A stretch of 64,000 nt of DNA from contig JAFYLH010000001.1 of NCBI GenBank assembly GCA_017537175.1, positions 15,387-79,386 of the forward strand, read 5' to 3'. The translations under genes and the position numbers were made by a program. Of the stretch, positions 1,413-12,446 are shown one piece after another. Each line of letters opens with the position of its first letter. The stretch's first letter is position 1. The notes beneath the pieces are model-generated. The model searched no databases and was not told the origin of the DNA. It saw only the letters and a program-made list of their open reading frames with translations. This DNA comes from Clostridia bacterium. GTDB taxonomy: Bacteria; Bacillota; Clostridia; Oscillospirales; CAG-272.

Positions 1413-1443
1413 GACAAAAAGGACTGCGATTGCAGTCCTTTTG

Positions 1444-4400
1444 TTATGCAGCTAAAGCATTGGCATTGATGCTGTCAATAATCTTTTTTATACCAAACCA
1501 TACCGTTACATCGGTAAACACCTCAACGATGCTTCCGTTATCGGTAAAGGGTGATTCAGTAAGAATAGACATATCCTTCAACAAGCCGTTATGTACAATA
1601 TACTCTACTATCTGATTAACAAAGTATATCTGTTTGCTGTTAAGATTAGTATCATTAAGATACTCGGCAAAAGCTGTTTTTGCGGCATTCATATCAAGCC
1701 CGACGATTTCACGAACAAACTCACCAAGAGGCTTGTTACCGTATTCTGCTTCATAATCAGCCTTTGTGCCGACCTCACTCCACAGGATCTTTTCCAGAGC
1801 CTCAACATCCTCGTGGGTCAAAGGCTCGTTTGATTTTAATTTGGCAATAACAGCCTCGTTCTGATGCTGACGGACATAGAACTCCGCTTTTGCCTTATAG
1901 TTGGCAAGATCGTCGTTTTCAAGCTCGGATTCGTTCCAGTCTATAGCCAGTATTTCATCATCAAAATTTGTATTAAAAGTGATATGATTTACCGGAATAT
2001 ACTTAATAAGATCACGAAGCTTTTCTCGGATATGCTCAAACTCATTTATACCCGCATTATCTAAATAATCGGTATGAAGCAATTTGTCTATAAGCTCGCT
2101 TTGTGCAGTGATCTCGGGGATATTTCCGCCTATCTTTGCAAGAGCCGAAACCTTTTTATATAGATCGGTACGGGCTCTGGAATACTTTTTACCCACAAGA
2201 TATGCAAGCTCGATGCCGTACATCAATGCATCAAAGCGGACAGCCTTTGCTTCATCGTCATAGGGGGTTATAAGCGGTGCAAGCTCGTCTGTCATTTTTA
2301 AGGTATCTTCGTAGGTTAAGGTAGTATAGTTGTCCGGATTGGAATAGAGCTCAACATACCGTAAATGCTGTTTGACAGCAAAGTTCTCTTTGTTAAGCTC
2401 CCTTACCTTTGTGACCATATCATCAACAAGAGCTTTTCTGAACTCAATAAGCTCGGGACTCTGGAAATCAATGTCCTGCAGTTTGTATGCGATCTGTGAT
2501 TTCAAGCTGAATATAGCACCCTGTACAGATAACTGATTTGCATTAGCTCTGCCGTTTACGTTCATACGGAAGAACTCAAAGTTACCGCAAAAATCAAAGA
2601 TATAGAAAATTTTCTTATCCTCGCCGTCGATAAGTCCGTCACACTTACGCGTACCTCTGCCTATCATCTGCCAGAACTTCGCTTTACTCATTACCTTTTT
2701 GAAGAATACAAGATTCAAGGCTTCGGGAACGTCTATACCCGTGTCAAGCATATCAACGGAAATAGCGATCTGTGGCAACTTTTTAGCATCGGAAAATTCA
2801 TCTATGGCACTCTGCGCATAGGTCATATAGTTATCAATGACCTTGGCATAACCGGGCAGATGGGGATATTCCTTGTTGAAGATATCGTATATCTTCTCTG
2901 CGTGTCTGTGATTCTTGGCAAAGATAATGGTCTTTCCTATCTTTGAGCCATAGTCGATCTTAAGACCGTGGGTCATAAGAACATTGAGAACTTCCTTGAT
3001 GGTATCCTCGTTAAAGAGCCATTGATTGAGAGCAGATGAATTTATCTTCTCTGGCAGTTCTCCGTTTTCATCGGTAAAGGTAGCTTCGTATGCTTCCTTG
3101 TCCTCGTCGGACAGCTCGTCGTAAACTATTCCCTGTTCGATGAATTTGAGCTTTGTTTCTATGGTCATAAAGTCTACAAGGTAGCCGTCTCTGACCGCCT
3201 GTGCAAGCTCATAGCCGTAGGTGGGAACACCGTTTTCAAGCTCAAATATCTCATAGGTATTCTTATCTATCTCGTCCTTGGGTGTTGCGGTAAGTCCTAC
3301 AAGGGGAGCATCAAAATAGTTGAATATATCACGGTATTTGTTATATATTGACCTGTGGGCTTCATCACATATCACAAGGTCAAAATGACCGCAGGTAAAG
3401 AGCTTTCCCTTATCATCCTTGACCGAATCTATACAATTCATCATAGTCTGATAGGTTGAGAAAACACAATGTGCGTTATAGTTCTCCTTATCCTCACAGA
3501 GATTGGTAACCGAAAGATCGGGCAGCATATTGACAAAGCTGCGTTTTGCCTGTGTTACAAGAGAGTTACGGTCGGCAAGGAAAAGTATGTTCTTGACCCA
3601 GCCGTGATTTAGGAGAACGTCACACAGAGAAATAACCGTTCTTGTCTTGCCCGAGCCTGTAGCCATAACAAGCAGAGCCTTGCGGCGGTTACGTTCACCA
3701 AAGCTGTCGCATACAGCCTTGACAGCTCCCTCTTGATAATATCTGCCTGCGATATTCTTATCCACAGTAATATGCTTTAAGCTTGTACGCATAGTCTGCA
3801 GATTAAACAGCTTTTCAAGGTCACGCTTGGAGTATATAGCGGCAACTCTGCGCTCGGGATAGAGGTTATCCGTGATACGTGTATCAAAACCGTTGGTAAG
3901 GAATATAACAGGACGTCTGCCGTATTTCTTTTCAAGGAGGTCTGCATACAGCTTTGCCTGCTGTCTGCCCTTGGAAACGTCAACGCAGGTACGCTTGGCT
4001 TCTATAACAGCCAAGGCTCTGCCGTCATCCCCGTAAAGGACGTAATCGGCATAGCCTACCTCGGCATTGTTGGGCATACCCTCAAGCTCAACCTCGTTTA
4101 TCCAGTCCTTACCCTCTGCCCATCCCGCATCTATAAGCATAGCGTCGATATATACCTTTCGGGTGGTATATTCGGATATATCAAGAGGTTTGGGTACGTA
4201 GGTCTGCTGCTGCTCGGTACGTCTTGCGGTAAGCTCGTCCTTTAACGCCTTGTTTTCGGCTATAAGAGCTTCAAAGTCAACGTCGGGTATCTCTGCCTTG
4301 ACAGGTTCTTGGGTAGGCTTAAGCAGCGAAGGATCAAACTCGCCGCTCTCATACTCCTCACCGTAGCAGTAAGCTATAAAGTCAAGGAAGATATAGAGGT

Positions 4401-4737
4401 TTTCAAGACAAAGTACCGCCTGTTCGTAGGTCAGCTTTTTACCTGTATGAGCGGCATTATTACCTAAAGTGCGGATAAGCTTAAGGCGTTCCCATATATC
4501 GTTACCTACGATATCTCTGAAATCCTCGTTATCTGTAAGGCTTCTTAAACTGTCATCCCAAGGCATAGTGAGAGAACTGTCAACCGAATACATCCATTTG
4601 ACAGCAAACTCCATAGCCCTGCGGCAGTTAACGACACAGGCAGACAGGTCAATATGTAATATCTTCTCTGCAGCTATAGCAACATCTGAAAATGTGTCAA
4701 ACTGCGGGGATTTTTTTAGGAATTTAAAGTTAGTCAT
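1444..4737 (-). CDS. hsdR: Type I restriction enzyme R subunit
   Basis: 1097 aa with SF2 helicase motif I (MATGSGKTRT) and a DEAH box (VICDEAHRS). The long N- and C-terminal extensions are typical of HsdR. It is in an operon with hsdM and hsdS. Confidence 0.93.
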   Translation of the reverse strand: MTNFKFLKKSPQFDTFSDVAIAAEKILHIDLSACVVNCRRAMEFAVKWMYSVDSSLTMPWDDSLRSLTDNEDFRDIVGNDIWERLKLIRTLGNNAAHTGKKLTYEQAVLCLENLYIFLDFIAYCYGEEYESGEFDPSLLKPTQEPVKAEIPDVDFEALIAENKALKDELTARRTEQQQTYVPKPLDISEYTTRKVYIDAMLIDAGWAEGKDWINEVELEGMPNNAEVGYADYVLYGDDGRALAVIEAKRTCVDVSKGRQQAKLYADLLEKKYGRRPVIFLTNGFDTRITDNLYPERRVAAIYSKRDLEKLFNLQTMRTSLKHITVDKNIAGRYYQEGAVKAVCDSFGERNRRKALLVMATGSGKTRTVISLCDVLLNHGWVKNILFLADRNSLVTQAKRSFVNMLPDLSVTNLCEDKENYNAHCVFSTYQTMMNCIDSVKDDKGKLFTCGHFDLVICDEAHRSIYNKYRDIFNYFDAPLVGLTATPKDEIDKNTYEIFELENGVPTYGYELAQAVRDGYLVDFMTIETKLKFIEQGIVYDELSDEDKEAYEATFTDENGELPEKINSSALNQWLFNEDTIKEVLNVLMTHGLKIDYGSKIGKTIIFAKNHRHAEKIYDIFNKEYPHLPGYAKVIDNYMTYAQSAIDEFSDAKKLPQIAISVDMLDTGIDVPEALNLVFFKKVMSKAKFWQMIGRGTRKCDGLIDGEDKKIFYIFDFCGNFEFFRMNVNGRANANQLSVQGAIFSLKSQIAYKLQDIDFQSPELIEFRKALVDDMVTKVRELNKENFAVKQHLRYVELYSNPDNYTTLTYEDTLKMTDELAPLITPYDDEAKAVRFDALMYGIELAYLVGKKYSRARTDLYKKVSALAKIGGNIPEITAQSELIDKLLHTDYLDNAGINEFEHIREKLRDLIKYIPVNHITFNTNFDDEILAIDWNESELENDDLANYKAKAEFYVRQHQNEAVIAKLKSNEPLTHEDVEALEKILWSEVGTKADYEAEYGNKPLGEFVREIVGLDMNAAKTAFAEYLNDTNLNSKQIYFVNQIVEYIVHNGLLKDMSILTESPFTDNGSIVEVFTDVTVWFGIKKIIDSINANALAA

Positions 4738-5573
4738 CGGGAGTTCTCTCCTATGTACCGAGATAAATTATATTCTTCTTTTGAAATAAGCATCTTAGCT
4801 GATTTAGAGTGAACTTGATACAAATTAAGAAAATCTACAAATTCATCTCCTATTAAAATTACCCTGTTGTTAAAGTCATTCGCAGAATCTATAAATGCAA
4901 AAAAATAGTCTGGAGATATAGGAAAACCTATCATATCAAATTTTACATTTTTATATTCACCGTCTAAATTTATAATTGGGCAATCGCTTGTTATAAATTT
5001 GTGGTTTTTCGCTTTTAATATAAACGCGTTATTTTCGCTTATTGTGGATTGCATAGCCGGTATATATAATGCATGGTCATCCATACTTAAAAAATATTTC
5101 AAGAAGGCAAATGTTGTTATATCTAAAATATGCTTAGAATCACCACAACTACTTAATGATTTAATGTTTTGCTTCACATATTGTTTCGACAAGTTCACAA
5201 AAATCGGATGGCGTAGTATGGTGAGTGCCATAAATTTTGACAATATGTTTCTATCTTCATCTGATATCATCTCATCATTAGATTTCAGATGCAAAGAATC
5301 GAGTTTATTTATAACTGATTTATATTTGCCTTCTATCCCTATAAAACTATTTTCTATGCTGTTTCTATTAATATATATTTCATTACCGGTATCATCTTTG
5401 TATTTTTGCTCATACAAATCATTACAAAGACAAATATCATCAATAGAAACAAATTTACAATGACTTTCACTATTTATAATAATATATACCATTCTTGCTT
5501 TTTTACATTTTGTAGCAAAGGAACTTAAATAAGATTTGGGCAAGTAGTGTTGTCTTTTTGTTTTAGTTGTCAT
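4734..5573 (-). CDS. DUF4238-like protein embedded in the Type I R-M operon
   Basis: 279 aa. The N-terminal KRQHYLPKSYLSSF matches my recollection of the DUF4238 signature (HYvPqfYLr.F). Its stop overlaps the hsdR start (ATGA at 4734-4737). Confidence 0.7.
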   Translation of the reverse strand: MTTKTKRQHYLPKSYLSSFATKCKKARMVYIIINSESHCKFVSIDDICLCNDLYEQKYKDDTGNEIYINRNSIENSFIGIEGKYKSVINKLDSLHLKSNDEMISDEDRNILSKFMALTILRHPIFVNLSKQYVKQNIKSLSSCGDSKHILDITTFAFLKYFLSMDDHALYIPAMQSTISENNAFILKAKNHKFITSDCPIINLDGEYKNVKFDMIGFPISPDYFFAFIDSANDFNNRVILIGDEFVDFLNLYQVHSKSAKMLISKEEYNLSRYIGENSR

Positions 5574-5592
5574 ATTGATTATTTTACAGACT

Positions 5593-5769
5593 CTACATCA
5601 TTTGGAATAAACTGTATATTCCTTTATATTGTGCAAACTCATATGCAAGTTTTCGTTGCTCTTCAAGGGTTAAGGCACTAATTGCTTTATCGGTTTCTAA
5701 CAATAGTTTCTTTGCATTTTCATAGTTATTCTTTGGTTCGCCATCTAATTTCCATTTAATATCTGTCAT
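5593..5769 (-). CDS. Small hypothetical protein (58 aa), not in the ORF track
   Basis: Hand translation gives MTDIKWKLDGEPKNNYENAKKLLLETDKAISALTLEEQRKLAYEFAQYKGIYSLFQMM*. A GAGGTG Shine-Dalgarno sits 6 nt upstream of the ATG. It lies between hsdS and the DUF4238 gene. Confidence 0.4.
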   Translation of the reverse strand: MTDIKWKLDGEPKNNYENAKKLLLETDKAISALTLEEQRKLAYEFAQYKGIYSLFQMM

Positions 5770-5790
5770 TATTTCACCTCTTTAGACTAA

Positions 5791-5819
5791 ATTATAACAT
5801 CAGTTTTGAAAAGACACAA
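5791..5819 (-). promoter_or_regulatory. Putative internal promoter for small ORF, DUF4238 and hsdR
   Basis: In minus-sense: TTGTGT, 17 nt, then the extended -10 TGTTATAAT, about 20 nt upstream of the small-ORF RBS. Confidence 0.35.
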
Positions 5820-5847
5820 TGTCATTTTCATGTCATTTAAGTGTCAT
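5820..5847 (-). promoter_or_regulatory. Three phased TGTCAT (ATGACA) direct repeats next to the internal promoter
   Basis: TGTCAT occurs at 5820, 5831 and 5842, spaced exactly 11 bp apart (one helical turn). The repeats sit immediately upstream of the putative -35. Confidence 0.3.
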
Positions 5848-5871
5848 ATTAATGCTATTTTCGTGTAATTC

Positions 5872-6930
5872 TCATCCAAAATATTTTTGCATTAATGCTT
5901 TTTTTAGTGTTTCAAGTTTTTCAAGGCTTTCTTGAACTGCCAATTTTGATTTGTCGGTCTGTTCCAAAAAATCAACATATCTCTTTTGTTCTAATACATT
6001 CACATTAGGAACCATAAGTCTATTAAAATCTTTAAGATTCAAATTATTCCTAACATCTCGCGAATATTTCTTAAGTTGTTCTTTACCCGAACCGTAATTT
6101 AGGAAACTTGAAACAAATCTTGGATAGTATCTACTTACATCATTTATTCTTGTTACAATCGTAGCAAATCCCAATGAGTTATTGAATTCTTCTCCAACCA
6201 CAGCAGATGTACCTATATCGCCAGTGTGTACTGTAACAATATCATTAGTCTTATGCATCCTGCTCTTATTCGCTTCTGCAAATTCCACATCTAAATATGT
6301 CCCATCCCATACGATTTTGTCGCTCTTTATACTTGAATTAAACAAAAGGGGTGTTCCATTATTGCAGTAGTGTTTTGTCATGGTCGTAACTAAACCTATA
6401 TATGTGTGTGCAATATCAGTAATATTCACAAAATCACTAACATTCCCAAACAGTTCGACAAATCGTGCTTTGACGAGTTCGTTAAGTTTTTGTAATTGAG
6501 TAACACTATCTAAAATTAGATTATCAACTGAAGTTAAAATAGTAATGACTTCATCCTGTTCCGCAAGTGATGGGAGAGGAATGTCAATGTTAAGCAAATT
6601 TGCTTTTGTCAAACTCGGAATAGTTACAGTAGTGTTAAGTGCTTCAAAATTGAAATTTTCACAAAAGTAGTACAGATATTTTGGATGCAGAATGTCCTTG
6701 TTTGCCTGTAACCCAAATGCAGTATCTACATTCCAAAAAGGTGTTTCGACATAAATAGGGTTGTTGATTGTGCCTTTTCTACCAATAATAACTGTGTGTG
6801 GTTCGCAAATATAATGATCAGCATATCCCATTATTCCCCCACTACCATATATAGGGTATTTACCGTTAGGATTTTCAACCTGTTTTTGATTTTTACCGTT
6901 CTTTATTTCTAAAACATCAGAAAATTTCAT
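5872..6930 (-). CDS. hsdS: Type I restriction-modification specificity subunit
   Basis: 352 aa with two target-recognition-like halves separated by a conserved helical spacer (LPSLAEQDEV...). The N-terminus is typical (KNGKNQK...YPIYGSGG). It lies between hsdM and hsdR. Confidence 0.9.
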   Translation of the reverse strand: MKFSDVLEIKNGKNQKQVENPNGKYPIYGSGGIMGYADHYICEPHTVIIGRKGTINNPIYVETPFWNVDTAFGLQANKDILHPKYLYYFCENFNFEALNTTVTIPSLTKANLLNIDIPLPSLAEQDEVITILTSVDNLILDSVTQLQKLNELVKARFVELFGNVSDFVNITDIAHTYIGLVTTMTKHYCNNGTPLLFNSSIKSDKIVWDGTYLDVEFAEANKSRMHKTNDIVTVHTGDIGTSAVVGEEFNNSLGFATIVTRINDVSRYYPRFVSSFLNYGSGKEQLKKYSRDVRNNLNLKDFNRLMVPNVNVLEQKRYVDFLEQTDKSKLAVQESLEKLETLKKALMQKYFG

Positions 6931-6941
6931 AGCATCCCCCC

Positions 6942-8444
6942 TTACAATCCAAGCAAAGAATTAAGCTCGTCCATTTTCTCGGAAATCTGCTTCTGTAATT
7001 CGTATAAATCTGCCATTAACTCCTCGGTAGACGGATATTCTACAGGCACGTACTCGGTCTTTTTATACTTATTGATAGAAAGATCATAGTCGTTTGAAAC
7101 GATCTCCTCTTTGGATACAAAGAAGGATTTTTCGGTTCTTTCGCTTTCCTTTTCGGCTTCGAGATTTCTGAAACGTGCGATAATATCGGGTATATCATTG
7201 TCGGCTATAGCTGTACGCTTATCATCAAGGCTGTAGCCGTCGGCGGTCATATCATAGAACCAAACATTATCTGTACCGCCGTGTCCGGTCTTGGTAAAGA
7301 TAAGTATACCGGTAGATACACCTGCATAGGGCTTGAATACTCCGGAAGGCATAGAGATAACGGCTTCAAGGCGGTTGTTCTCTATAATCTCTCGGCGGAT
7401 AGCCTTATGTGCGGTAGAAGAACCAAAGAGGACTCCGTCGGGAACGATACAAGCACATCTGCCGCCTATGCGGAGCATACGCAGAAAGAGGGCTAAGAAA
7501 AGAAGCTCGGTCTTTTTGGTCTTGCAGACCTTGAGAAGATCAGCCGATACGGTATCATAGTCAAGACTGCCCTTGAATGGGGGATTGGCAAGGATAAGGC
7601 TATACTTGTCCTTGTCGAGGTTCTGGTCGGACAGGCTGTCACGGTATTCTATATAGGGACGGTCTACACCGTGGGTCATCATATTCATAGCACCGATACG
7701 GAGCATGGTTCTGTCCATATCATAGCCGTGGAACATATGATTCATATAATGATCCTTTTTGACGTTGTTAAAAAAGATCTCTTCTCTGTGATTTTCCTTT
7801 AAGTATTCTCCAGCACTTACAAGGAATCCTGATGTACCGCAGGCAGGGTCACAAATAACATCATCGGCCTTTGGCTGCATAAGCTCAACCATCATATGTA
7901 TGATATGTCTAGGGGTACGGAACTGACCGTTAAGCCCTGACTGTGCTATCTTATTGAGAAGATACTCGTATACGTCTCCGCGGATATCCTTATCCTCGGA
8001 TTTTGACATAAGGTCGTATATCTCGTCAAGGGCGTCTATTACCTTTGAGAGAAGCAGGGGTGTAGGCAGCTTGAAGATAGCATCATCCATATACTTGGAA
8101 TATGCGCTGTCCTTGTTTGCATCAAGGGTCTTTAAAAAAGGAAATACAAAATCCTGCATTATGGAATATGTCTGTCCTGCGTTGAGATCACGGAAAACAG
8201 ACCATCTGAGCTGGTTTGCATCTATTTCTCTGCCGTTAATATTTACAATTCCGGCAAAACGGCTTTTGTACTCTAAACCTAACATCAGCGATTCTTTTGC
8301 ACGGAGATTGTCGGTATCGTCAAGATCGCGGATAAACATAAGGTATGTGATCTGTTCTATAACGTCAAGAGGATTTACAAGTCCCCCTGCCGCAAATATA
8401 TCCCATAAGCTGTCTATTTTATTTTTGAGTTCGCCTGTTATCAT
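6942..8444 (-). CDS. hsdM: Type I restriction-modification N6-adenine DNA methyltransferase subunit
   Basis: 500 aa with the SAM-binding motif DPACGTSGFL, the catalytic NPPF (LANPPFKGS) and an N-terminal HsdM_N-like region. Confidence 0.95.
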   Translation of the reverse strand: MITGELKNKIDSLWDIFAAGGLVNPLDVIEQITYLMFIRDLDDTDNLRAKESLMLGLEYKSRFAGIVNINGREIDANQLRWSVFRDLNAGQTYSIMQDFVFPFLKTLDANKDSAYSKYMDDAIFKLPTPLLLSKVIDALDEIYDLMSKSEDKDIRGDVYEYLLNKIAQSGLNGQFRTPRHIIHMMVELMQPKADDVICDPACGTSGFLVSAGEYLKENHREEIFFNNVKKDHYMNHMFHGYDMDRTMLRIGAMNMMTHGVDRPYIEYRDSLSDQNLDKDKYSLILANPPFKGSLDYDTVSADLLKVCKTKKTELLFLALFLRMLRIGGRCACIVPDGVLFGSSTAHKAIRREIIENNRLEAVISMPSGVFKPYAGVSTGILIFTKTGHGGTDNVWFYDMTADGYSLDDKRTAIADNDIPDIIARFRNLEAEKESERTEKSFFVSKEEIVSNDYDLSINKYKKTEYVPVEYPSTEELMADLYELQKQISEKMDELNSLLGL

Positions 8445-8497: not shown

Positions 8498-8526
8498 ATT
8501 ATAATACAATATTCTTTTTATTTCAA
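8498..8526 (-). promoter_or_regulatory. Putative hsdM promoter
   Basis: In minus-sense: TTGAAA, 17 nt, TATAAT. A GAGGT RBS precedes the hsdM ATG. Confidence 0.4.
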
Positions 8527-9507: not shown

Positions 9508-10806
9508 TTATATAATTACTCTTATCTTATCTATACCGTAATAGCGGAAAAGCTCGATGGCACTTTGGTCTATGACCTCTCCGCAGACCGCAATAGGCAC
9601 CGCAGGGGGACAGCTTACCGAGGGTGCGCCTAACACCCGTCCGAGAGCCTTATCGATGCTGACAGGCTCATTTTTTGACATTATAGCCTGTCTTGGGTTC
9701 ATAGCTTTTTCAAGGCACTTCAAGGCAGGCGGTGTGTCCTCTATGGGTGCGCGCCTGTCGATATACAGTAATGCGGATATGACCGATATTACCGCTTCCT
9801 TGTCGGGGGGAAGCATCATCACAAGATAGTCGGGGTCGGCAAACTCGCAGACTATTCCCTGCTCTGTCATCAGCTCTGACAGCTCTACACCGCTATAGCC
9901 GTATTTTTTTGCATCAAGGGTGAGCTTCATTGGCTCGTCGCCTACTGTGAAAAGGCTTTGCTTAAGCTCCTCTACACAGGGGATAGTATCACAAAGCCGC
10001 TGTCTCAACACGCTGTCAAGATAGCTGTTACAGCGATCAAGGGAATAAAGTATAAGGTATGACGGGCTTGTGGATGCAAAGAGACTCATTGCATCGTCCG
10101 CCATATCACAGAGATACTCGGGTGCGTTCCTTGAAATGTGGAGATATCCCGCCCCTGTAAGGCAAGGCAGGGTCTTGTGTGCCGAGTCACAGCATATATC
10201 CGCTCCAAGGTCTATTGGGTGCTGTGATGCGGGCAGAAACTTAAGATATGCACCGTGAGCGTTGTCGACCAACAGCATTACACCGTGGCGGTGACAGACT
10301 TCGGCAAGTCCCTTTATATCCGCCATATTACCGAGGTAATCGGGGGATGTGATATATACCGCTACGGGGTCGTTGTGCCGTAGGTATTCTTCAAGGGCGT
10401 CAGGTGTAATATTGCATGACAGAAGGCTGTCTCCGTAGAGCCAGTCTATCTCTATATCAAGGAGCGCACAGCCGTACATAAGCACCTTGTGGGCATTGCG
10501 CCCTGCGGCTATAAGAGGTCTTTTGTCACCCCGTGTAAGCATCGCAAGATAGAGCATAGCCTTGATTGAAAGGGACGAGCCCTCGGTGGAATAGAGGGTC
10601 CTCTGTGTGCCGAAGAGCCCTGTTGCGTTGTCCATACTCTGTCTGATAATGCCCTTGGCATTGTAAAGCACATCCGCACCCTCAATTTCGGTTATATCAA
10701 GTCCCTCGACACCCATACCGCCTACGCCCTTATGCCCCGGCATATGGAGGCGTAATTGGCTTCGGTCACGGTAGTTATCTAAAAAATCACAGATGGGGTT
10801 GGTCAT
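9508..10806 (-). CDS. PLP-dependent Orn/Lys/Arg decarboxylase family protein
   Basis: 432 aa with N-terminal LHMPGHKG and the PLP-lysine motif DSAHKTLP. The start overlaps the scfB stop by 1 nt (TAATG). Confidence 0.8.
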   Translation of the reverse strand: MTNPICDFLDNYRDRSQLRLHMPGHKGVGGMGVEGLDITEIEGADVLYNAKGIIRQSMDNATGLFGTQRTLYSTEGSSLSIKAMLYLAMLTRGDKRPLIAAGRNAHKVLMYGCALLDIEIDWLYGDSLLSCNITPDALEEYLRHNDPVAVYITSPDYLGNMADIKGLAEVCHRHGVMLLVDNAHGAYLKFLPASQHPIDLGADICCDSAHKTLPCLTGAGYLHISRNAPEYLCDMADDAMSLFASTSPSYLILYSLDRCNSYLDSVLRQRLCDTIPCVEELKQSLFTVGDEPMKLTLDAKKYGYSGVELSELMTEQGIVCEFADPDYLVMMLPPDKEAVISVISALLYIDRRAPIEDTPPALKCLEKAMNPRQAIMSKNEPVSIDKALGRVLGAPSVSCPPAVPIAVCGEVIDQSAIELFRYYGIDKIRVII

Positions 10807-12188
10807 TATTCTTCGTCTAAGCTCTTTGCGGCTTCAAGCATAATGGCACATTCCATACGCTTGCGGAAAAGGTCACAGCCGTCCTTGTAGATGCCCTTTA
10901 CCGAGCCTGTTGCGTGGTATGCATTAGCCGCGCATCCGCCCGAGCAATAAAGCTTTGCCCAGCAGTCACGACATTCGGACCTTGCATAGACATTACAGCC
11001 CATAAACTCGTCCTGCATCTCCTTGTTGGTGACACCCTGCCATACATCACCCAGCTTGAATTTTTCGTCACCTACAAACTGGTGGCAGGGGTAGAGGTCA
11101 CCCCAGGGAGTAACCGCCATATACTCGGTTCCCGAGCCGCAGCCCGATACTCTCTTATATATACAGGGGCCGCCCTTAAGGTCTATCATATAGTGATAGA
11201 AGGTAAAGGGTCTTCCCTCTTTTCGTCTTTCGAGCATAAGAGCAGCAAGCTGCTCATACTGCTCCATAACAATAAGCTTGTCCTCTTCGGTCAGAGCCAC
11301 GGGATCCCCCGGAGCTGTAACCACAGGCTCCATAGAAAGCTCATTGAAGCCAAGGTCAAGCATTACCTTGATATCCTCAAGGAAGTCGGGATTGTGGTGA
11401 GTGAAGGTGCCGCGCATATAGTAGTTCTTGCCGCCTCTTGCTTCTACGAACCTTTGGAACTTGGGAACTATCTTCTCCCAGCTTCCGTTACCTGCAAAGT
11501 CAACACGGTAGCGGTCGTGGACCTCCTTTCGTCCGTCAAGGCTGAGGACCACATTACTCATTTCACGGTTACAGAAGTCTATAACATCATCGTCAACCAG
11601 AACTCCGTTTGTGGTAAGGGTAAAGCGGAAGTTCTTGCCCTTTTCCTTTTCGATACTGCGGGCATAAGCCACAAGCTGCTTTACCACATCAAAGTTCATA
11701 AGAGGCTCACCGCCAAAGAAGTCGACCTCAAGGTTACGGCGGTTGCCCGAGTTCTCTACAAGAAAATCAAAGGCCTGCTTGCCTACCTCGTAGCTCATCA
11801 TTGCCCGCTCACCGTGGTACTTACCCTGACTTGCAAAGCAGTATGAGCAGTTGAGATTGCATGTGTGGGCGATATGTATGCACAGCGCCTTGACAACACC
11901 GGAGGTGCGCGCCTTAAGCTCACCCGCCATAGGCTCAAAGCTGTCGGGGGTATAGAGCTTGCCCATGGCCTTTAATTCATCTATCTGGTCAAGACATTCG
12001 GATACCTCCTCGGGGGTAACATCCTCTCTGTCCTTATATTTTTCAAGTGTTTCGGCGATTACCGTTTCTCTGTCCTTACTTTCATAAGCCTCAATCATAT
12101 CATAGGCAACCTCGTCCACCACATGGACCGAGCCTGAATGAATGTCAAGGACGATGTTAAGTCCGCCTAATTTATAGCAATGTAACAT
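10806..12188 (-). CDS. scfB: Radical SAM/SPASM thioether-forming SCIFF peptide maturase
   Basis: 460 aa with the radical-SAM CxxxCxxC motif (CNLNCSYC) and a Cys-rich C-terminal SPASM region. It lies directly downstream of a SCIFF peptide gene. Confidence 0.9.
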   Translation of the reverse strand: MLHCYKLGGLNIVLDIHSGSVHVVDEVAYDMIEAYESKDRETVIAETLEKYKDREDVTPEEVSECLDQIDELKAMGKLYTPDSFEPMAGELKARTSGVVKALCIHIAHTCNLNCSYCFASQGKYHGERAMMSYEVGKQAFDFLVENSGNRRNLEVDFFGGEPLMNFDVVKQLVAYARSIEKEKGKNFRFTLTTNGVLVDDDVIDFCNREMSNVVLSLDGRKEVHDRYRVDFAGNGSWEKIVPKFQRFVEARGGKNYYMRGTFTHHNPDFLEDIKVMLDLGFNELSMEPVVTAPGDPVALTEEDKLIVMEQYEQLAALMLERRKEGRPFTFYHYMIDLKGGPCIYKRVSGCGSGTEYMAVTPWGDLYPCHQFVGDEKFKLGDVWQGVTNKEMQDEFMGCNVYARSECRDCWAKLYCSGGCAANAYHATGSVKGIYKDGCDLFRKRMECAIMLEAAKSLDEE

Positions 12189-12302: not shown

Positions 12303-12446
12303 TTACTTATTCTCTTTGTTCTCGCACTCCTGGTTTGCGATACCGCAGCTGGTCTTGCAAGCGGACTGGCAGGATGTCTGGCACTCGCCGCAACCGCCCT
12401 TGTTGGTGCAAAGATTCTTAGTTTCTAAAGTCTTGATATGCTTCAT
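12303..12446 (-). CDS. scfA: SCIFF (six-cysteines-in-forty-five) ribosomal peptide precursor, not in the ORF track
   Basis: Hand translation gives MKHIKTLETKNLCTNKGGCGECQTSCQSACKTSCGIANQECENKENK*, containing the canonical GGCGECQTSCQSACKTSC core. A GGAGG RBS is present. Confidence 0.9.
   Translation of the reverse strand: MKHIKTLETKNLCTNKGGCGECQTSCQSACKTSCGIANQECENKENK

Follow-up and report, generated by a model that had tools for sequence, protein, structure and literature searches.

A DUF4238 defence-family gene as cargo in a Type I restriction-modification operon of gut Clostridia

Several accessory defence genes are known to be nested in the operons of Type I restriction-modification (R-M) systems. 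PrrC is almost exclusively embedded in such systems, DarTG2 lies between hsdS and hsdR in the RRDM island of enteropathogenic Escherichia coli, a site that its authors called a potential recombination hotspot, and TgvAB is embedded in a Type I operon of V. cholerae (VPI-2). The use of such positions to find new defence genes was formalised as “guilt-by-embedding” by Payne 2024 (for the embedding in Type I operons and the hsdS-hsdR hotspot, see PMC12255303, PMC11411939, and bioRxiv 10.1101/2024.01.29.577857). Here, we analysed a stretch of 64,000 nucleotides (nt) of a Clostridia bacterium (contig JAFYLH010000001.1), called the window throughout, in which a gene of the DUF4238 family and an open reading frame (ORF) of 58 amino acids (aa) lie between hsdS and hsdR of a Type I R-M operon. 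Like PrrC/EcoprrI, DarTG2, TgvAB, and the Campylobacter Rlo genes, this is an accessory defence gene in the hsdS-hsdR interval that would be coexpressed with the restriction subunit. It differs from these cases in that the effector belongs to another family and that the host is one of the gut Clostridia with a HEPN-fused HsdR. The locus is a case of a DUF4238 defence-family member carried as cargo by a Type I R-M operon, a known phenomenon that in principle holds little that is new.

DUF4238 is itself an established defence family. One DUF4238 protein, encoded in a variable hotspot of a P2-like prophage, gave E. coli strong resistance to T7, and no molecular function was named for it (Rousset et al. 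2022, PMC9122126). Later surveys count the family among defence systems, and a validated E. coli system combines it with TIR domains. The statement of the original prediction that no function had been demonstrated for DUF4238 is out of date, given this single-gene anti-T7 defence and the existence of a PADLOC model, DUF4238-Pers. The protein of the window has much in common with the system of Rousset et al. (DUF4238-Pers in PADLOC, Rst_DUF4238 in DefenseFinder): both match Pfam PF14022 over their full length, have a size of ~280-300 aa and a single domain, and start with an HY(V/L)P motif. Their genomic settings differ, since one was found in a P2 prophage hotspot of Enterobacteria and the other is inside a Type I R-M operon of Clostridia.

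The operon of the window is encoded on the minus strand in the order hsdM, hsdS, a 102-nt spacer, the 58-aa ORF, the 279-aa DUF4238 gene, and hsdR, as had been read from the sequence in the first place; the coordinates are confirmed (Table 1). The Type I set is complete, with hsdM, hsdS, and hsdR intact, co-oriented, and in one cluster according to Pfam, PADLOC, and NCBIfam; HsdR matches the PADLOC model REase_I (3.1e-153) and, partially, an EcoAI-type model of NCBIfam. Only 11 nt separate hsdM from hsdS, and 19 nt separate the 58-aa ORF from the DUF4238 gene. The DUF4238 stop and the hsdR start share ATGA, as described, which reads tcat on the plus strand, with the TGA at 4736-4734 and the ATG at 4737-4735. 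The Shine-Dalgarno sequence of hsdR, AGGAG, sits within the 3' end of the DUF4238 gene, and the start of the latter has no good Shine-Dalgarno sequence of its own. A scan for terminator-like sites in 4737-5871 found none besides a weak hairpin within the DUF4238 gene. The arrangement is that of prrC: non-hsd genes nested between hsdS and hsdR, on the same strand and with no intervening terminator.

We propose that this locus is a layered defence built on an exchangeable cassette, and we regard this as the probable explanation. The operon would belong to a clade of Type I systems that is widespread in gut and rumen Clostridia and whose HsdR has a HEPN-like DUF4145 N terminus. The hsdS-hsdR junction of this clade would serve as a general slot for accessory anti-phage genes, occupied in the window by a low-GC insert of two genes. 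A conserved internal promoter would drive the 58-aa ORF, the DUF4238 gene, and hsdR, with a probable contribution of read-through from hsdMS, and translation would be coupled along the unit by the short distance between the small ORF and DUF4238 and by the ATGA overlap between DUF4238 and hsdR. Restriction by HsdMSR would then form the first layer, and the coexpressed DUF4238 protein an independent second one, acting as an enzyme-like sensor-effector with H9, Y10, E55, E74, E81, R121, and T195-S196 as its invariant residues rather than as a subunit of the restriction enzyme. The partner of the 58-aa protein would be the R-M system rather than DUF4238, with a protein-binding accessory as its probable role. 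The cargo could be swapped by recombination in the conserved 3' end of hsdS and 5' end of hsdR.

Evidence for a slot comes from the relatives of this operon. From an alignment of six HsdRs over their N-terminal 330 residues, a scan of one genome for each species retrieved 80 loci of Oscillospiraceae, Acutalibacteraceae, Lachnospiraceae, Ruminococcus, and others, mostly in metagenome-assembled genomes from gut and rumen. hsdS was upstream of hsdR in 59 of the 80, and the gap between the two genes exceeded 250 bp in 56 of these 59 loci (95%), with one to five co-oriented ORFs inside (median gap ~1.3 kb, maximum 4.4 kb). The 95 cargo proteins of at least 90 aa, from 59 genomes, fall into 63 clusters. 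Their Pfam families include AbiH (9), DUF2806 (4), and, with two each, DUF4062, SieB, FRG, DUF6173, Schlafen/AlbA_2, HAD, DUF2971, and HNH; single cases are DUF4238, SIR2_2, AbiJ, AbiU2-HEPN, RelA_SpoT, NTase+HEPN, Mrr_cat, and a Dodola-like pair of DUF6414 and AAA_2. PADLOC recognised AbiH, DolB, and many PDC candidates, and many other cargo proteins are without any annotation. The HsdR clade surveyed is thus an unusually rich and regular cargo hotspot. The suggestion that genes placed between hsdS and hsdR are frequently accessory defence modules agrees both with the cargo in 56 of the 59 loci and with the literature. The further argument of the original prediction, that tight coupling to the nuclease subunit reveals a specific functional link with restriction, is not supported: the same slot with the same coupling accommodates 63 unrelated clusters, and distant DUF4238 genes are found elsewhere. 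Hence, the slot is a generic hotspot and the tight coupling to hsdR is a matter of operon architecture. Cargo and hsdR overlap by 4 nt or 14 nt in three other loci with DUF4238 (L003, L009, and L018; such numbers are our own labels of loci), because the cargo ORF runs into the ribosome-binding site of hsdR. Cargo genes of the slot usually end in such an overlap with the hsdR start, which is therefore not by itself a sign of functional partnership.

The distribution of DUF4238 homologues separates the subclade of the window from the rest of the family. The close homologues (51-100% identity) with recovered context, i.e., those of L001 (the window's own contig), L003-L008, L009, and L018, are all located between hsdS and a DUF4145-HsdR. 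Homologues of 31-36% identity neighbour a UvrD/CoiA helicase-nuclease in L010-L012, on an island with an integrase, and Type II R-M clusters that include C5 methylases in two cases (L013, L017); relatives of ~26% identity are encoded on Staphylococcus plasmids, adjoining a recombinase and an Fst toxin. One more distant DUF4238 (L079) is again in an hsdS-hsdR slot. The presence of homologues outside Type I loci indicates that the family as a whole is stand-alone and tracks defence islands and mobile elements, and that the subclade of the window has settled in Type I operons. These data bear on the alternative that is closest to the PrrC precedent, in which DUF4238 would be kept latent on the Type I complex and freed to act as a suicide effector once this complex is inactivated by an anti-restriction protein of a phage. 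Such a guard would fit with the position of the gene, which is that of prrC, with the overlap between its stop and the hsdR start, with the confinement to the slot of every homologue of at least 51% identity whose context was recovered, and with the second, distant DUF4238 of L079. However, the position tells little in a slot shared by so many unrelated clusters with the same coupling, a DUF4238 protein was active as a single cloned gene (PMC9122126), and no Type I genes surround the plasmid copies or the homologues of 31-36% identity. PrrC is regulated by the R-M complex, whereas the comparative evidence on the cargo of the window speaks against an obligate link. A guard of this type seems improbable to us.

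The assignment to DUF4238, which had first been made from an N-terminal signature, was borne out by Pfam: the protein matches PF14022 with 96.6 bits (cut-off of 27, E=2.3e-27) over profile positions 1-269 of 281, and it has the conserved N-terminal H-Y-(V/L/I)-P motif of the family. We found 19 further homologues with 31-88% identity. A comparison of nine diverse members, including the Staphylococcus and Priestia plasmid copies, revealed as invariant H9, Y10, P12, L16, F19, E55, E74, E81, and R121, as well as T195, S196, P199, P218, and P221, a pattern that looks like that of an enzyme active site. The AlphaFold2 (AF2) model is confident, with a predicted local distance difference test (pLDDT) of 82.8 and a predicted template modeling score (pTM) of 0.84. 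In a viral library, the model has a single fold match (E=7e-10), to an uncharacterised protein of the P2-like Stenotrophomonas phage Smp131. This match fits with the P2-prophage context of the validated DUF4238 gene. Otherwise, viral-contig scans provided a single, weak relative of DUF4238, and a tblastn search against 50,697 phage records found no match. Searches of NCBIfam and PHROGs with both inserted proteins returned nothing significant.

The start of the gene deserves a remark. In L003 and L009 an ACG stands in place of the DUF4238 ATG (at 7780-8000 and ~7966-8000, respectively), and gene callers begin at a TTG within HYLPKSYL, which would drop the invariant His-Tyr; an ATT lying just 5' may be the true start in these two sequences. 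In the window, the start region of DUF4238 (ATCAATATGACAACTAAA, 5562-5579) resembles a box of the spacer (ATTAATATGACACTTAAA, 5836-5853), and the 58-aa ORF, DUF4238, and hsdR all start with ATGAC. These likenesses could be due to chance in AT-rich DNA or could reflect a common recognition element.

Some results weigh against the explanation that we favour and should be taken together. The protein of the window is remote in sequence from the validated one. The PADLOC model DUF4238-Pers does not match it at E<=10, and a PADLOC search with the DUF4238 and 58-aa proteins gave no match for either even at this threshold; the same model matches weakly a homologue with 61% identity (P0009, 9.6e-6) and the embedded DUF4238 of L079 (1.2e-7). 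Because of this distance, the defence activity of the window protein is predicted only, as an extrapolation across the whole Pfam family. Its mechanism has no structural anchor, since the DUF4238 profile found no match among PDB sequences and the model found no fold relative in the PDB with Foldseek (best E=0.5, TM ~0.1). Furthermore, the window's own subclade is known only from within Type I operons, and a dependence on the R-M complex is possible for it. The internal promoter, finally, is predicted from sequence conservation, and a search of RNA runs found none that contains the locus.

The 58-aa ORF turned out to be a real gene, representing an unannotated family of ~150 small acidic helical-hairpin proteins. 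It has 19 close homologues (58-94 aa, 62-100% identity); 56 clusters of the family, nearly all stand-alone and of 54-96 aa, were found in a library of 1.84 billion proteins, and a profile of distant members gave 93 matches that partly overlap the earlier ones. A metagenome scan with the alignment of the family, the patterns of which were too degenerate, gave 1 locus. Positions E11, Y16, A19, L23, L33, L41, and E44 are near-invariant, and P12 and K20 are the commonest residues at more variable positions. The AF2 model (pLDDT of 82) has a disordered segment at residues 1-11 and helices at 15-31 and 35-57, and the 143 members for which it was computed have a median isoelectric point (pI) of 5.3 and a net charge of -1. 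There was no match to the protein in Pfam, NCBIfam, PHROGs, PADLOC, PDB sequences, or PDB folds (Foldseek), and viral-contig scans did not find a phage homologue.

The genomic contexts of this family are informative on its partners. In Type I loci, the ORF always lies 3' of hsdS, either directly or after one small ORF (L026, L086), and it heads varied cargo, with at least eight unrelated arrangements besides DUF4238 (the window, L009, L018). The genes that follow it encode a 199-aa protein (L019-L022), AbiH (L023), a 213-aa protein with DUF6680 (L024), a 184-aa protein (L026-L029), a 165-aa protein (L048), AbiH, Mrr, and again AbiH (L071), a 134-aa and a 310-aa protein (L086), or a 302-aa protein, DUF2806, and a 266-aa protein (L109); the proteins immediately 3' of the small ORF have no similarity among one another. 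A 68-aa member (7001-7207 in L112-L116), abundant in metagenomes (184 blocks), belongs to a Type III-like operon without cargo, where a 956-aa Res helicase is encoded on one side of it and a 623-aa N6_N4 methyltransferase on the other, and TAATG overlaps connect its gene with those of both neighbours. Another distant member is encoded between hsdM-hsdS and a DUF6414 gene, at a place without a neighbouring hsdR. In the lineage of L003-L008 the small ORF is frameshifted, with two 1-nt deletions in L003, and the DUF4238 ORF is intact.

These contexts argue that the 58-aa protein is linked to R-M and is unlikely to be an antitoxin or adaptor of DUF4238. The pairing of the two genes as toxin-antitoxin or adaptor-effector would account for the position of the small ORF immediately 5' of DUF4238, at 19 nt, for the poor Shine-Dalgarno sequence of the latter, and for the recurrence of the pair in the window, L009, and L018. 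Yet small proteins with 62-81% identity precede unrelated cargo (the 199-aa, AbiH, 213-aa/DUF6680, 184-aa, and 165-aa proteins, among others), distant members occur between res and mod or before DUF6414, distant DUF4238 genes lack an ORF of this family, and DUF4238 persists beside a frameshifted partner in L003-L008. The strict co-occurrence expected of Type II toxin-antitoxin genes is not observed, and we consider such a pair very unlikely. Of the three roles that the original prediction had offered for the small protein, antitoxin and adaptor of DUF4238 are thus made unlikely by the unrelated cargo, the res-mod contexts, and the L003 frameshift; a regulator or accessory of the R-M system is conceivable. 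The contexts suggest that the 58-aa protein is a facultative companion of R-M genes, present in only 4 of ~60 surveyed species loci. One could go further and see in it a new family (54-70 aa) of accessories of ATP-dependent restriction, a subunit or modulator shared by Type I and Type III-like systems; it might control the assembly or the establishment of the restriction complex or couple the complex to embedded effectors. We put this forward as a tentative possibility, open to considerable doubt. The Ral protein of phage lambda (66 aa), a modulator of Type I R-M, is of similar size and its role could conceivably be alike, with the difference that Ral is phage-encoded and the 58-aa protein is host-encoded. 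A Ral-like identity was rejected, as hhalign gave a probability of 0.06% against lambda Ral.

In L079 (4554-4745) and L076 (6697-6879), the first cargo gene behind hsdS is a member of a second family of helical ORFs (60-63 aa), which precedes the distant DUF4238 and an unannotated 258-aa protein, respectively. A relationship with the 58-aa family was not significant (probability of 0.4%).

The spacer between hsdS and the 58-aa ORF seems to contain a conserved internal promoter for the unit formed by this ORF, the cargo, and hsdR. A promoter-like signal had been noticed there, and its conservation in seven homologous spacers supports it. In the window, a -35 element TTGTGT (5814-5819) is followed after 17 nt by an extended -10 element TGT-TATAAT (5791-5799). 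All seven loci with the spacer have the same TTGnnn/17/-10 layout; the -10 is TGnTATAAT in the window, L003, L009, and L018, and weaker, without the full TGn extension, in L019 (TCTAAT) and in L086 and L109 (TATGAT). A generic promoter scan missed this element because its -35 matches 3 of 6 bases. The GAGGTG ribosome-binding site proposed for the 58-aa ORF could be read as well, and aligns with AGAGGTG, AGGAGGTG, or GGGAGTG in homologous loci. No terminator-like site separates hsdS from the spacer, so that read-through from the hsdM promoter is possible. Five boxes precede the promoter of the window with an exact period of 11 nt (TTACAC, TAGCAT, TGACAC, TGACAT, TGACAT); an A-rich stretch comes after each of them and ends in AAA(A) in four cases; the other loci have four or five boxes. 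A triple array of TGNCAY at 11-nt spacing occurs once in the 64 kb, compared with 0.03 expected. The feature common to most spacers is the phased A-rich stretches, and the identity of the hexamers is confined to the closest loci. Phased A-tracts bend DNA and stimulate promoters without a protein.

A controller role of the 58-aa protein is conceivable because its gene is the first of the unit that ends in hsdR and stands behind this structured promoter. The protein would then regulate the internal promoter and time the expression of hsdR and cargo after transfer, as C proteins and RptR do. The seven loci with a promoter flanked by four or five boxes phased at 11 nt, and the rarity by chance of the array in the window, are in line with this, as is the disorder of the N-terminal 11 residues in a model of the monomer, which would be expected for the strand of a ribbon-helix-helix (RHH) protein. 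RptR is also a precedent for a small repressor in Type I islands. The RptR/C proteins and the 58-aa protein are alike in being small (58-79 aa) and genetically tied to R-M operons, and some loci of the 58-aa family are near a promoter with phased repeats. However, the 58-aa protein has no sequence or fold similarity to them, and matches neither helix-turn-helix (HTH) nor RHH proteins in Pfam, PDB sequences, or PDB folds; no DNA-binding fold was recognised and binding to DNA is only conjectural. The family is acidic, its genes follow hsdS or res whereas those of RptR/C are upstream of the operon, and in L023, L024, L026, L048, and the Type III-like loci the ORF lacks its own promoter and is coupled in translation to the preceding gene. 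The phased A-rich stretches shared by most spacers could, moreover, bend intrinsically, without any protein. We therefore see a controller as unlikely, and a protein-binding accessory as slightly more likely than a regulator.

The insert is compositionally foreign and was probably acquired horizontally. The region of ~4650-6150, comprising the insert and the 3' part of hsdS, has a GC content of 26-30%, compared with 41-50% in hsdR and hsdM and ~50% in the flanks. Low GC content, the change of the DUF4238 ATG to ACG in L003 and L009, and the frameshift of the small ORF in L003 could also suggest a decaying hitchhiker without present function. Against this, neither ORF is disrupted in the window, members of both protein families keep their invariant motifs down to 30% identity, and the AF2 models of both proteins are confident; decay is hardly credible here.

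How could cargo enter and leave the slot? The 3' end of hsdS (...LMQKYFG) is conserved across loci and forms its left border. In L003, a 33-nt direct repeat of this hsdS end (91% identical; 6455-6487 and 7636-7668) brackets an insertion of 1181 bp with two unannotated genes (245 aa and 131 aa), and this repeat is the footprint of a cassette insertion at the left border. In gut metagenomes of goat, cattle (bovine), and sheep, in which contigs of at least 90% likeness were considered, the word depth was 17-250 for the hsdS 3' end and 6-75 for the hsdR 5' end, compared with ~0 for the DUF4238 cassette. The slot borders (4471-4737 and 5806-6072 of the window) reached depths several-fold to 50-fold above those of the neighbouring hsd sequences in four gut metagenomes. 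Many co-resident strains have the borders of the slot in common, and not the cassette. The loci with DUF4238 and those with the 58-aa family are scattered over the HsdR tree. Together with the L003 repeat and the depth of the borders in metagenomes, this scatter suggests that the cargo would be exchanged by recombination at the borders. One contig of one metagenome that joins 4629 to 5871 was considered as an empty-slot allele and rejected, as its match on one side is only 22 letters long and the start of hsdR would be lost.

The restriction subunit itself may contribute a further activity. Its DUF4145 domain belongs to a group classed as HEPN by Anantharaman 2013, and is an active RNase in RAZR. 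R89, G92, N93, and H97 are invariant in the six HsdRs, and R89/H97 are spaced as R-x7-H, like the catalytic pair R146/H154 of RAZR. By this analogy, HsdR may carry an RNase module of its own.

Table 1. Features of the Type I R-M operon and its insert in the window
Feature	Position	Strand	Basis or remark
Promoter-like site 5' of hsdM (TTGAAA, 17 nt, TATAAT)	8498-8526	-	Consensus scan, 11 of 12 bases
hsdM, Type I N6-adenine methyltransferase, 500 aa	6942-8444	-	Pfam N6_Mtase 1.2e-64, HsdM_N; PADLOC MTase_I 5.5e-181
hsdS, specificity subunit, 352 aa	5872-6930	-	Pfam Methylase_S 5.3e-28, two stretches
Spacer between hsdS and the 58-aa ORF, exactly 102 nt	5770-5871	-
Putative internal promoter and boxes	5791-5868	-	Layout conserved in seven homologous spacers
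Shine-Dalgarno sequence GAGGTG of the 58-aa ORF	5775-5780	-	AAATA (5 nt) before the ATG
58-aa ORF	5593-5769	-	Unannotated family of small acidic helical-hairpin proteins
DUF4238 gene, 279 aa, embedded cargo	4734-5573	-	PF14022, E=2.3e-27
ATGA overlap of DUF4238 stop and hsdR start	4734-4737	-	Read from the sequence
hsdR, 1097 aa: DUF4145 (HEPN-like), HSDR_N nuclease, superfamily 2 (SF2) helicase, EcoEI_R_C	1444-4737	-	Pfam
DUF4145/HEPN-like domain, HsdR aa 23-113	4399-4671	-	Pfam 3.7e-15
Terminator-like hairpin directly 3' of hsdR (11-bp stem and T-rich tail)	1417-1442	-	Scan

Other variable features were observed around these operons. A second, smaller variable gap is often present between hsdM and hsdS, in many of the loci L031-L110 and, for example, in L003, where it holds a 177-aa ORF (4829-5362). 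Some loci have two hsdS genes (L026, 3171-6570; also L027, L028, L036, and L110), and in L026-L028 a gene for a tyrosine recombinase lies between the two, an arrangement that, 5' of the cargo slot, resembles a shufflon for phase-variable specificity. A gene for a Fic-domain protein is located directly 5' of hsdM or res in L003 (2236-3297), L019 (3156-4211), L023 (3238-4299), and L112 (2891-3982); the loci with Fic carry the small ORF, the Fic protein has a winged-helix C terminus in the Type III-like loci, and the window has no Fic gene at this place. Elsewhere in the window, a radical SAM maturase of 460 aa (10806-12188, minus strand) adjoins the gene of a 47-aa SCIFF peptide (~12303-12446, minus strand), which was called on the identical contig L001. 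This pair is typical of Clostridia and unrelated to the cargo insert.

What goes beyond the literature that could be searched is the small protein family linked to R-M, together with the regularity and the richness of the cargo slot in this clade of HsdR. The gene embedded in this Type I R-M operon can be annotated as a probable anti-phage defence gene of the DUF4238 type, replacing the label of “unknown function,” and because DUF4238 is a validated defence family with no solved fold relative, any biochemical handle on it would be useful. If the 58-aa family were truly a general accessory of Type I and Type III systems, it would add a component to systems that are regarded as fully inventoried. 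Finally, the uncharacterised cargo families of the slot, among the 63 clusters of 59 genomes, are candidate new defence genes. With cargo, mostly unannotated, in 95% of the species surveyed, this HsdR clade of Clostridia offers a hunting ground for such genes by guilt-by-embedding.

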